Source: Enterobacteria phage HK225
DNA length: 45,366 bases
Sequence record: NC_019717.1
Reading direction: 5' to 3' (one strand)
The stretch's first letter is position 1, and each line of letters begins with the position of its first letter. Below, one piece after another: positions 41,898-44,487 of this stretch. A model generated the notes under the pieces. That model was given only the letters and a program-made list of their open reading frames with translations, did not search any database and was not told where the DNA came from. Position numbers and translations under genes: made by a program.

Positions 41898-42031
41898 AGC
41901 CAGAAACGCTTGAGATACTCCGCGCGCGCTGGCAGCGCCTTCGCATTTATCGCTACCGGGGATCGGTGCTGGTGGATTATCGCATTCTTCGTAATTTTGT
42001 TCGTATCTATCATTCAGCAGGAGCAGCCTAA
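41894..42031 (+). CDS. small hypothetical protein (45 aa, not in ORF track)
   Basis: ATG overlaps the rusA stop after GAGGAGG; stop overlaps the Q start. Confidence 0.3.
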   Translation: MKPETLEILRARWQRLRIYRYRGSVLVDYRILRNFVRIYHSAGAA

Positions 42032-42846
42032 TGAACCTCGAAAACACCGTGAAATATCACTTCGCCAAGTCGACGCTTATTAGCGACTCTCCGCGCGCCA
42101 CTGGTTCAGATTCGCTGACCGGGACGGATGTCATGGCGGCCATGGGCATGACCCAGGAACGTGCCGCCATGGGATACAGTGCCTTCCTCGGCAAGATGGG
42201 CATCAGTTACAACGATCGGGAGAGGGCGATTGAGTTGCTGTCTGAGTACGCGTTAACCAAATGCGATAAGGTTGCCGCGCTGCGTAAGTTGGATTCCGGG
42301 GTTAAGCCTAAGGTGATGCACCAGTTGGCCACCTTCGCTTTTGAAGATTACTCCCGCAGCGCTGCGAGCGTTAAGCAGTGTGATTGTTGCAGCGGGCAGG
42401 GATTTATTGAGGCCGACGTGTTCACAATGAAATCTCATTATTCAATGAGGATTCCTCAATGGGCGAAAGAGCTTGGTCAGTCACCGAGTGATTTCGAGGT
42501 TAAACGACAGGTTCGAGAGGTGGTTCGAGTGCTGTGCTCGAACTGCAAGGGGAAGAAGGTTGTCAGTTGTGCCTGCAATGATTGCCGGGGACGTGGGAAA
42601 GCCGTAGACCAGAAGGAAACGAAGAAACAGGGTGTGCCGGTTATGACTGACTGCAAGCGCTGCGGCGGGCGTGGATATGAACGCATTCCTTCAACTGAGG
42701 CCCACGCAGCTATTTGCCAGATTACGGATGTAATCAGCCTGGATACGTGGAAGAAGTCCGTTAAACCGTTCTATGATCAGCTGATTACGAAATTCGATAT
42801 TGAAGAGGCATGGGCAGAAAACCAACTGAAACAAATAACACGATAA
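42031..42846 (+). CDS. Q: late-gene antiterminator Q-like protein with four CxxCxGxG-type motifs
   Basis: 271-aa ORF immediately upstream of the late promoter/terminator and lysis genes; CDCCSGQG, CSNCKGKK, CNDCRGRG, CKRCGGRG. Confidence 0.55.
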   Translation: MNLENTVKYHFAKSTLISDSPRATGSDSLTGTDVMAAMGMTQERAAMGYSAFLGKMGISYNDRERAIELLSEYALTKCDKVAALRKLDSGVKPKVMHQLATFAFEDYSRSAASVKQCDCCSGQGFIEADVFTMKSHYSMRIPQWAKELGQSPSDFEVKRQVREVVRVLCSNCKGKKVVSCACNDCRGRGKAVDQKETKKQGVPVMTDCKRCGGRGYERIPSTEAHAAICQITDVISLDTWKKSVKPFYDQLITKFDIEEAWAENQLKQITR

Positions 42847-42865
42847 CGGCTATGGAAGTTAATTC

Positions 42866-42900
42866 CAGCTATTTACTTTTCCCGAATCTGTGTTAATTTT
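42866..42900 (+). promoter_or_regulatory. candidate late promoter (pR'-like)
   Basis: ATTTAC-N17-TAATTT between Q and the terminator. Confidence 0.3.
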
Positions 42901-42931
42901 ATCCCAACGATGGGTTAATGCCTTCGTTTCA

Positions 42932-42967
42932 AGCCCCGCGGATAACACCGTGGGGCTTTTGCGTTTC
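42932..42967 (+). terminator. strong intrinsic terminator (tR'-like)
   Basis: 10-bp stem AGCCCCGCGG-ataaca-CCGTGGGGCT followed by TTTTGCGTTTC. Confidence 0.7.
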
Positions 42968-43003
42968 TGGAGGTAACGGCGAGGCGCTACCCTCGCCTTA
43001 ACA

Positions 43004-43420
43004 TTAAGGGAGGGTTTTCATTACGCTATCAATCTCCCTTCCTTCAAATCTTGAAGTCCAGCCGCAGGAGCCGCAATGGTAAGGAAAGTCATCGAACCCG
43101 CTACCGACCTGTTTAAGACAGTTGGGGCAATAAACCGCGCTGATATACCCACCCGCGGGATTTTTTCTAAAGGCCGCACCCATGTGCTCGACAAACTCAT
43201 CCTTTGCCCGATAAGCCGCTATTTCCTTCTCAAGTTCTACGTTCTTGGCTTTCGCCTCGGCAAGTTCTGCTATGGTGGCAGCATGGGCTTTTTGAAGTAC
43301 GTCGATCTGCTCTCCAATGAAAGCGATGCGCTCGCGCAGGACCTCGTTACTTTGCACAGCAGAAAGCGCGCCGATCCCGTTTTTAAGGGACGCGATAAGT
43401 AATCCTACATCCATGGTCAT
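43004..43420 (-). CDS. hypothetical coiled-coil protein with C-terminal zinc ribbon, antisense to the late operon
   Basis: 138-aa ORF; CPNC...CGSC; ATG overlaps the stop of the upstream minus-strand ORF (ATGA). Confidence 0.5.
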   Translation of the reverse strand: MTMDVGLLIASLKNGIGALSAVQSNEVLRERIAFIGEQIDVLQKAHAATIAELAEAKAKNVELEKEIAAYRAKDEFVEHMGAAFRKNPAGGYISAVYCPNCLKQVGSGFDDFPYHCGSCGWTSRFEGREIDSVMKTLP

Positions 43421-43626
43421 TCCCTAATTGTCTGTGGAATGACCAATTTAGCAATTTCCTTTGTCTGTGGAAAGCAGGGAAACCACGCGCCGGGCGTGGA
43501 TAAATATCCCGGTATTGAATCGACTGTTGGCTGCCGCTTGGCGGCCTTTTTCATTTCAGGCTCACGGGAATCATCCGCTACGTGCTTTGTTGATAAATCC
43601 AGCCCGTGAAGCCTGAGCCTTTTCAT
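43417..43626 (-). CDS. hypothetical protein (uncertain start), upstream partner of the zinc-ribbon gene
   Basis: 69-aa ORF without a clear SD; contains the 12-bp direct repeat TTGTCTGTGGAA twice (43428 and 43461). Confidence 0.3.
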   Translation of the reverse strand: MKRLRLHGLDLSTKHVADDSREPEMKKAAKRQPTVDSIPGYLSTPGAWFPCFPQTKEIAKLVIPQTIRE

Positions 43627-43664
43627 ACACGCACAGCGCCATCCGAAAAATCGGAGGTGAGGCT

Positions 43665-43943
43665 ATGACCAGAATGAGCACCATTTACAGCAGACTTTCA
43701 TATGGAACAGGAACCACGCTGACCGGCTGCGGTGTATCAGCGAAGGCATATGCCGAAACAGCTAAAACAGCAAAAGAGGTGTCCTGGATGTTGGCCGACA
43801 GAATTGCAGGGTTAAGCCTGAGCGACTGGGCAATTATTGTCGGTATCGCATGCACTGTAATCACCTGTGCAGTGAATTGGTATTACAGGAAAAAGGAAAG
43901 GGAGGACCGGCTTAATGGCAATGTCACCAAAGCTGAAGAATAG
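43665..43943 (+). CDS. S: holin (pinholin-like, dual-start motif)
   Basis: strong SD GGAGGTGAGG; Met1-Thr-Arg-Met4 dual start; hydrophobic [20 protein letters not shown] then a charged C-terminus; precedes a SAR endolysin. Confidence 0.6.
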
Positions 43944-44487
43944 CGTTATTGCAGCGATACCCGCTGGCGCTATTGCTATCGCTGCGGCGTTGATTACTGG
44001 CCCAACGGGTAATGATGGCCTTGAAGGTGTACGCTATCAGCCTTATCGGGATGTTGTTGGAGTGTGGACTGTATGCTGGGGCCATACTGGTAAAGATATT
44101 ATCCTCGGCAAGACCTACACCAAAGCAGAGTGTCGAGCGTTACTTAATAAAGACCTCACCACCGTAGCGCAGCAGATTAATCCGTACATCAAGGTTCCGA
44201 TCCCTGAAACTACTCGGGGCGCTCTTTACTCGTTTGTCTACAACGTCGGTGCTGGCAATTTCAAAACCTCCACTCTTCTCTACAAAATAAACCAGGGTGA
44301 TATCAAAGGCGCATGTGATCAGCTTCGTCGATGGACATATGCCGGTGGTAAGCAATGGAAAGGGTTGATTACCCGGCGTGAGATTGAGCGTGAAGTTTGC
44401 CTGTGGGCAGAAAAACCTCAGGTTCTTGGTGATGGGCTCGGGCCGCTTAACCCAGGCATTCCGGTATCAGTTCCGGGGGTATTCTGA
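43915..44487 (+). CDS. R: SAR endolysin (lysozyme, phage 21 R-like)
   Basis: N-terminal signal-anchor-release segment [19 protein letters not shown]; catalytic [25 protein letters not shown]; near-identical stretches to recalled phage 21 endolysin. Confidence 0.85.

Follow-up and report, generated by a model that had tools for sequence, protein, structure and literature searches.

An antisense single-gene moron in the Q–holin interval of Enterobacteria phage HK225 and its putative portable promoter-leader

The subject of this analysis is an insertion between the Q gene and the holin gene of Enterobacteria phage HK225 (sequence record NC_019717.1), which was analysed as one stretch of 45,366 nucleotides (nt), henceforth called the window. 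The Q gene occupies 42031..42846 on the plus strand (PF03589, E-value 3e-47) and is followed at its 3' side by a tR'-like intrinsic terminator (42931..42958, plus strand; terminator scan, inverted repeat I1), which forms one border of the insertion, while the holin (43665..43943) and lysozyme (43915..44487) genes lie beyond the insertion on the plus strand. Between the tR'-like terminator and the holin gene, two open reading frames (ORFs) are found on the minus strand, i.e., 43004..43420 (138 amino acids, aa) and 43417..43626 (69 aa), which overlap as ATGA. Shortly before the holin gene, the late-operon leader contains a further strong intrinsic terminator on its own strand (43529..43551, plus strand; terminator scan; GGCTGCCGCTTGGCGGCC followed by a T run), which belongs to holin-module DNA. 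Hence, the late operon must read through two terminators to reach the lysis genes. Morons are one of the main routes by which prophages change their hosts, and most of them are small and of unassigned function and control. An initial annotation of this DNA had proposed an antisense unit of two overlapping minus-strand ORFs in the moron position between Q and the holin gene. The position was confirmed by the placement of Q, terminator and holin, by the presence or absence of the unit among Escherichia coli genomes, and by phage Louie, which carries the cassette between another Q and another holin gene. Both ORFs and their overlap are indeed present, but only the larger one, in a form shortened to 136 aa, is a gene.

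The large minus-strand ORF is a real, conserved gene (43004..43414, minus strand), as seen from the ORF itself, its homologues, its codon variability, and an AlphaFold2 model of its product. Its stop codon lies at 43004-43006. The first 138-aa reading of the product was corrected at its start, as 25 out of 25 aligned homologues begin with MD[IV].., placing the start at codon 3 of the 138-aa ORF (ATG, 43414..43412), and an AGGGA is found 6 nt upstream of this codon; the gene was therefore set to 43414..43004, encoding 136 aa. A search of 5.8 billion proteins returned 66 relatives with 58–96% identity, nearly all of 136–137 aa and all annotated as hypothetical, from Escherichia, Salmonella, Klebsiella, Citrobacter, Hafnia, Yersinia, Providencia, Proteus, Pantoea, and Vibrio. 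Searching 1.84 billion cluster representatives with a profile added depth to the family, with 465 clusters at 50% identity (E-value ≤0.001), almost all of 125–140 aa. The conservation in relatives that had been named as a check was thus borne out for this gene. In 32 distinct 136-codon sequences, the variability at the three codon positions was 69/37/105, which is a coding signature.

The product was modelled by AlphaFold2 with a mean predicted local distance difference test score (pLDDT) of 88, and comprises a helix (residues 5–22), a long helix (26–74), a zinc-ribbon region (76–126), and a short C-terminal helix. The N-terminal helix is amphipathic, the coiled-coil helix spans about 50 residues, and the beta-rich ribbon region, with strands at pLDDT 89–95, contains the C-terminal C4 zinc ribbon CPNC...CGSC. 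The consensus of 80 relatives with 25–88% identity reads VLRERLAL, coiled coil, EFVEHRGALFKRxPxGGYxxxVYCPxC...PxxCxxCxW...F; in the same set C96 and C114 do not vary, and at least 90% of the relatives keep C99 and C117. Both defining features of a C4 zinc ribbon, two conserved CxxC pairs and a beta-hairpin scaffold, are hence found in sequence and model, and zinc binding is predicted. The coiled coil and ribbon proposed from the window sequence are upheld by the model and by the near-invariant cysteines.

At the 3' side of the gene, a stem-loop with the arms GGCGAGG/CCTCGCC but without a U tract was found (42978..42997, minus strand; inverted repeat I2, −15.6 kcal/mol, z −3.0), and other loci carry equivalent hairpins of different sequence 3' of the gene. 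In three loci with a Q-lysis context (L034, L041, L042), the 136-aa gene is 96% identical and is followed, 40 nt past its stop, by a 96-aa gene starting MSSMLDPQNYNKEMREKK, with a canonical terminator 3' of the latter. The moron can therefore hold a second cargo gene.

The protein was matched to PHROG 1244 (function not assigned) with an E-value of 5.8e-26, residues 3–135 aligning to profile positions 2–155 of 157. No match was obtained for the window protein in Pfam, NCBIfam, or PADLOC (PADLOC-DB 2.0), searches of the 80 relatives against Pfam and PADLOC gave nothing specific, ten longer relatives showed no informative extra domain in Pfam, and profiles of PDB sequences gave nothing specific for the zinc-ribbon protein. 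Literature searches with the repeat sequence described below, or with moron and zinc-ribbon terms, found nothing relevant. The earlier statement that no function is recognised therefore holds, with sequence, profile, and fold searches all having been made. An alternative assignment, that the protein regulates phage or host machinery, i.e., replication as YabA, transcription as DksA/TraR, or division as ZapB, Kil, or DicB, via its coiled coil and zinc domain, is considered doubtful. It draws on sub-threshold Pfam matches to YabA, ZapB, and DivIC in 10–15 of the 80 relatives, on the name “regulator of replication initiation timing” given to some relatives by the Joint Genome Institute (JGI), and on the placement in Salmonella, where the gene comes after that of an Arc-like repressor in a region resembling immI. 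However, all of these Pfam matches stay below the curated cut-offs and cover the coiled coil only: YabA (PF06156) was not matched by the window protein and was matched by 10 of 80 relatives below the gathering score (best E-value 1e-4), a number that also applies to YabA or ZapB matches taken together. In PADLOC, weak coiled-coil matches to LmuB, JetC, and PbeC occur in relatives only. The sub-threshold YabA/ZapB/DivIC and LmuB/JetC matches reflect the heptad repeats of the coiled coil. DksA/TraR is further disfavoured by the lack of a PF01258 match and by the model, which has one long helix and not the two-helix hairpin, and the genomic context gives no link to replication or division genes. 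The product of the locus is thus not a member of the toxin-antitoxin, DksA/TraR, YabA, or PADLOC families, nor is the locus IsrK, and the large family to which the protein belongs is uncharacterised.

The 69-aa ORF, which had been taken as a second gene, is not one: it is a by-product of the 5' element of the moron and of the reverse complement of the late-strand terminator. Its first ~24–30 codons are holin-module DNA that is also found without the cassette, codons ~26–33 are the reverse complement of the terminator at 43529..43551, and its C-terminal ~35 codons fall within the promoter-leader element described below, i.e., a non-coding leader. RefSeq/PGAP has no annotation over it. The frame upstream of “WFPCF” is shifted or closed in relatives, and most of 76 distinct leaders lack an ATG in frame, so that the conservation seen for the 136-aa gene does not extend to this ORF. 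Codon-position variability in the leader frame was 20/22/18, i.e., without periodicity, in contrast to the 69/37/105 of the 136-aa gene. A two-gene operon, in which the 69-aa protein would be a functional partner of the zinc-ribbon protein, e.g., as an antitoxin-toxin-like or adaptor pair, was nevertheless weighed, as the ORFs overlap as ATGA, a 75-aa ORF is annotated at this place in phage Louie, and a weak match to PHROG 37047 exists (E-value 3e-6). This match, however, covers residues 7–41, mostly the holin-module part, and neither the other leader classes nor the other contexts keep an ORF partner, while the same DNA stands ahead of unrelated genes. Together with the broken frame and the missing periodicity and annotation, this leaves the two-gene operon highly improbable, and the model is largely refuted. 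A toxin-antitoxin or other two-gene system had likewise been tried and rejected, because the upstream ORF is absent or unconserved elsewhere and has no coding signature. In phage Louie (PQ850616), leader and terminator complement are annotated as a 75-aa hypothetical protein (CDS0060; L001, 3531-3758), and this call and PHROG 37047 probably represent a recurring false gene call.

The DNA directly 5' of the gene is instead a modular element of ~105 nt, a putative promoter-leader termed the class A leader (43412..43519, minus strand), which is recognised in the window in one copy by a covariance model (R1, 125.9 bits, E-value 2e-22) and whose 5' edge is abutted by the terminator at 43529..43551. 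The model was built from 17 leaders, and 57 leaders were aligned. RNAalifold on a plain MAFFT alignment gave no structure, as this alignment was structurally out of register, and the covariance-model alignment was used instead. A cmscan against Rfam 15 (minus strand, 42800-43750, E-values up to 10) gave no match overlapping the leader and only one at the leader's distance; the minus-strand matches obtained were CRISPR-repeat models on the tR' hairpin. A 21-nt leader motif was found in 113 IMG/VR stretches, ahead of the 136-aa gene and of many unrelated small genes. In these IMG/VR prophages at least 12 unrelated cargo genes of 56–98 aa, none with a known function, follow the leader, including a family of 61 aa, another of ~93 aa that scores marginally as GhoS-like, several proteins of 56–84 aa, and small CxxC proteins. 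In 49 of 59 leader contexts, the nearest ORFs of at least 150 aa to either side are both encoded on the opposite strand, and an opposite-strand terminator abuts the leader in many contexts besides the window. Based on the unrelated cargo, the antisense placement, and the abutting terminators, the region is regarded as a portable promoter-leader for antisense morons. Two leader-cargo modules in tandem were observed in one locus at L078 3300-4010 (also in L077, L080, and L083), where a window-type leader, a gene for a 65-aa CxxC zinc-ribbon protein, and a terminator are followed by a leader of the divergent “CCCCAACG” type and the 136-aa gene; both leader types thus coexist in one prophage.

Within the leader, the exact 12-nt direct repeat TTGTCTGTGGAA noted earlier was found at 43428-43439 and 43461-43472, 33 nt apart. 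It is present twice as claimed, but belongs to hairpin units and not to a protein. Copy 1 (43461..43472; TTCCACAGACAA on the minus strand) overlaps TTTCCA at the −35 position (43473..43468) and lies on the loop side of hairpin S3, whereas copy 2 (43428..43439, minus strand) lies at the predicted mRNA 5' end and provides the end of the 5' arm and the loop of hairpin S4. In 63 of 74 unique leaders, the cores of both copies are identical, in four variants, which is why the repeat is regarded as a duplicated hairpin unit of regulatory or structural nature. Between the two copies, a candidate extended −10 element, TGCTAAATT (43445..43453, minus strand), is composed of TG (43453-43452) and a hexamer (43450..43445). 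The pattern TGnTAnnnT was found in 67 of 68 unique leaders with eight different hexamers, TTTCCA lies exactly 17 bp upstream of it, and at the −10 place of the divergent “CCCCAACG” leader type TATAAT, TATAGT, or TATGAT is found. From this signature, a transcript start at ~43440-43437 is predicted. Consensus sites of LexA, CRP, and IHF, checked by eye, do not fit the leader. Reading of the twin boxes by the 136-aa protein, i.e., autoregulation via its own leader, was rejected, since the same boxes precede unrelated cargo and the protein therefore cannot be their reader.

Four hairpins were delineated on the minus strand. S4 (43414..43445; inverted repeat I3, −14.8 kcal/mol, z −4.2) has perfect 10-bp arms and a 12-nt loop, buries the Shine-Dalgarno (SD) sequence AGGGAA, and reaches the A of the start codon; its arms differ yet stay complementary in L018, L066, L067, and L200, and its G-U pairs in L077, L200, and L213 fit the minus strand. 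S3 (43451-43475) is weak (−3.9 kcal/mol, z −0.3), with compensatory changes in its arms in divergent types, as judged by eye. S1 (43490-43494 with 43508-43512; 92% paired) and S2 (43483-43487 with 43495-43499; 77.5% paired) each contain three double-changed pairs and are GC-rich, interleaved, and mutually exclusive hairpins at the 5' edge of the module. As only 0–2 nt separate the 3' arms of S1 and S2, an H-type pseudoknot of both was rejected, and they must be alternative hairpins. A role of S1/S2 as terminator of the upstream module in tandem arrays was also rejected for L078, in which the upstream cargo has its own U-tract terminator. Covariation of the whole structure was 0.142 compared to 0.085 in shuffles, with 0 of 500 shuffles reaching 0.142, and slid controls were 35–49% paired compared to 79%; the alignment used for this had been fitted to S1, S3, and S4 but not to S2.

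As a separate observation, the minus strand at 43495-43503, in the S1 loop, reads TTATCCACG (TTATCCACg), which matches the DnaA box TTATCCACA at 8 of 9 positions, and the core TTA.CCAC is invariant or nearly so in the aligned leaders. In addition, (C)TTTCCACA or (C)ATTCCACA is found in both repeat copies (43465-43473 and 43432-43440), and the “CCCCAACG” leader type is without these two.

How the leader is transcribed bears on a second reading, in which the ~105-nt element would be a structured 5' untranslated region (UTR) with a start at or before S1, and a mini upstream ORF (uORF) would unlock translation of the cargo. This uORF would run from a conserved NTG (TTG in the window, 43446..43444) through (M)VIPQTIRE to a UGA stop (43419..43417) overlapping the ribosome-binding region of the cargo, and its ribosome would melt S4, following a logic as in erm-type attenuation or in the way orf45 and anrP are coupled in the isrK locus. 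Only as parts of an RNA would S1, S2, and the long S4 be meaningful, an NTG (TTG, CTG, GTG, or an ATG one codon earlier) was present at the same place in the inspected leader types, a pseudo-SD AAGGAAA lies 7–10 nt upstream of it, and in most leaders the short frame ends at the cargo SD or close to it. One large subgroup has TATAAT just 5' of S1, and uORF-coupled activation at a locus behind a Q gene has a published precedent (PMC4825925). However, a TAnnnT just 5' of S1 was found in only 20 of 68 leaders and not in the window, for which reason a promoter directly upstream of S1 was rejected. The invariant positions T,G,-,T,A,-,-,-,T between S3 and S4 form an extended −10 element and go beyond what a start codon alone would need, the leader columns show no codon periodicity, and inspection by eye of the divergent leaders L004 and L077 made no uORF evident. 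The structured UTR with a uORF is hence regarded as the main rival to the internal promoter, though as the less probable of the two.

The opposite strand was considered as well, as a plus-strand small RNA or processed segment of late mRNA (~43474-43551) ending at the terminator could act as an IsrK-like regulator or as antisense to the moron leader. Rfam isrK gave a sub-threshold match at 43474-43551 on the plus strand (21.2 bits, E-value 0.039), a strong plus-strand terminator abuts the module here and in many contexts, and the covariation counts are, G-U pairs aside, strand-blind, with few G-U pairs in the stems. Against this, the isrK match falls far short of the gathering threshold of 50 and leaves the first IsrK helix unformed, its terminator half is part of the holin module and not of the leader, a plus-strand promoter was seen neither by promoter scan nor by eye, and the G-U pairs of S4 mentioned above favour the minus strand. 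Such an RNA is therefore deemed very unlikely. A further sub-threshold match, isrJ (15.7 bits, 42928-42958, plus strand), and the isrK match fall on the two plus-strand terminators, and both probably reflect generic terminator similarity.

Of 5426 complete E. coli genomes, 10 carry the whole cassette. In another 64, and in phage mEp237, the match is confined to ~43529-43640, i.e., the holin gene's own upstream region, and the terminator at 43529..43551 is kept with the holin module. In phage Louie, a 98% identical cassette is flanked by another Q (207 aa) and another holin gene. The tR'-like terminator stays with the cassette in loci whose Q-side sequence past the terminator diverges from that of the window. 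The unit thus shows the present/absent polymorphism at a junction of conserved modules that defines a moron. It is not restricted to the Q–holin gap: among 98 loci encoding a relative, 22 lie between Q and lysis genes, whereas Citrobacter and Vibrio prophages carry the gene in the cI/pL immunity region antisense to pL genes, in a Salmonella tail region it lies directly behind an Arc-like repressor gene, and remote relatives are found at the edge of integrase-bearing elements. The DNA 5' of the gene falls into several unrelated classes in the 98 loci, and none of them codes for a conserved partner. The gene is hence a mobile moron that occupies several prophage positions and is usually antisense to its neighbours.

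Two further arrangements were noted. In Salmonella and related loci (L010/L011 4543-5414, L061, L065), the gene stands behind a gene for an Arc/MetJ-type repressor of 83–151 aa, with the 151-aa ORF ending 3 nt 5' of the gene, and the pair diverges from a Bro-N antirepressor-like gene, resembling P22 immI; this arrangement suggests co-expression with a lysogeny-maintenance repressor. In 20 of the 98 loci (among them L045, L047, L053, L055-L058, L060, L068, L071, and L075), the same gene family is preceded, at about 125 nt upstream of the gene, by a conserved class B 5' region unrelated to class A, which follows a terminator-like hairpin and reads ACTGATCTTTTATCAGGAT ... CCAGGTTAGGCTG.

The locus is interpreted as a self-contained moron of one gene that sits in antisense orientation in the late-operon leader, between tR' and the holin gene, with its own promoter-leader, expression in the lysogen, antisense silencing during late transcription, and a dimeric zinc-ribbon binding protein as product; a probability of roughly 0.55 is given to this reading as a whole. 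Its 5' element would hold a sigma-70 promoter with the extended −10 element TGCTAAATT (43453..43445) and a −35 position, TTTCCA, within repeat copy 1, and the transcript would begin near repeat copy 2. At the mRNA 5' end, (A)UUCC would pair with the ribosome-binding site at GGAA(U), forming a hairpin that can reach 10 bp in the window, and, as the ribosome-binding site would be contained in S4, translation would be held low. The moron would accordingly be expressed by itself at a low level in the lysogen, its expression being its own because the unit faces against the flanking lytic operon. Upon induction of the late operon, Q-antiterminated transcription through the moron would switch the gene off by collision and antisense RNA, and the plus-strand terminator at 43529-43551 may insulate the lysis genes from stray late-direction transcripts arising within or passing through the moron. 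The protein would most likely act as a coiled-coil dimer, with its two zinc ribbons binding a host or phage macromolecule. A lysogen-benefit role, e.g., exclusion of or defence against other phages, is favoured by the context as a guess.

Several observations weigh against this interpretation. The promoter and the transcript start are predictions from sequence signatures, and a generic promoter scan found nothing at the leader, with hexamers scoring 8/12 against a cut-off of 9. A start 5–8 nt past the −10 element would remove half of the S4 arm, leaving AUUCC/GGAAU, and would leave S1–S3 untranscribed; given the compensatory changes in S1/S2 and the apparent selection on the long S4, the transcript may begin at a position 5' of this. 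In front of several other cargo genes, only a weak S4 or none is formed. Moreover, the GC content of the gene (0.506) and of the leader (0.467) does not differ from that of the flanks (Q 0.517, lysis genes 0.498, window 0.52), a deviating GC content being a frequent but not a strict feature of morons.

A broader proposal extends beyond the window and is put forward tentatively, with the odds clearly against it. The ~105-nt element would be a portable module, not described before, for expressing antisense morons of prophages in Enterobacterales and Vibrio. Its twin boxes, one in the −35 position and one where the mRNA starts, would evolve in concert and be read by one trans factor (protein or RNA) co-ordinating a regulon of small accessory genes, and the 136-aa family would be one cargo with a new activity, e.g., phage exclusion. 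The reusable promoter-leader is a more interesting result than the protein. Its reuse before at least 12 unrelated small genes provides a sequence handle to find such genes and points to shared regulation. The zinc-ribbon coiled-coil family, being widespread as a lone antisense gene in prophages and other integrated elements, is a candidate for screens of lysogen phenotypes. In addition, ORF callers turn the leader into “hypothetical proteins” (Louie CDS0060), an annotation artefact worth removing.

Among the neighbouring genes, residues 169–216 of Q comprise a DnaJ-type CXXCXGXG zinc-finger segment (PF00684, 30.9 bits, just below the cut-off of 32.7), which precedes the C-terminal stretch with the best Antiterm-Q match (residues 178–263).

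In comparison with known systems, the protein shares with YabA and CT398/HP0958 (FlgZ) an oligomerising coiled coil followed by a C-terminal zinc-binding interaction module. It has no significant sequence or fold match to them past the helix, and its C4 ribbon motif, EFVEHxGAxF(K/R)K...GGY...VYCPxC, is missing from YabA and CT398/HP0958, so that membership is not supported. Lambdoid morons include HK97 gp15, lambda bor and lom, and stx downstream of Q. Like these, the unit in the window is autonomous, with a promoter-like region, one ORF, and a 3' hairpin, it lies between genes that are adjacent in related phages with a present/absent polymorphism, and it occupies the classic Q-lysis slot. In contrast to them, it is oriented opposite to the late operon, shows no GC deviation, encodes a protein of an uncharacterised family, and would be driven by a structured promoter-leader of ~105 nt common to unrelated cargo. 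SD-sequestering 5' hairpins are known from RNA thermometers of the ROSE and fourU types and from ompA-like 5' stem-loops. As in these, a UUCC arm would pair with the SD GGAA near the mRNA 5' end and the arms covary, whereas no sequence relation or Rfam match was found, and the hairpin unit of the window is duplicated, with copy 1 over the −35 position. In Gifsy-1, the isrK-orf45-anrP locus lies immediately downstream of a Q-like gene, its mRNA is kept translationally silent by RNA structure, and a short uORF controls the downstream gene (PMC4825925). It differs from the window in that the Rfam match (RF01394) falls on the opposite strand with 21 compared to 50 bits, and in that the cargo of the window is different and no anti-repressor; nor did the analysis give evidence of a short RNA acting in trans. 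As an accessory regulatory locus in the slot after a Q-like gene, isrK-orf45-anrP is, by analogy, the closest regulatory counterpart of the HK225 moron.

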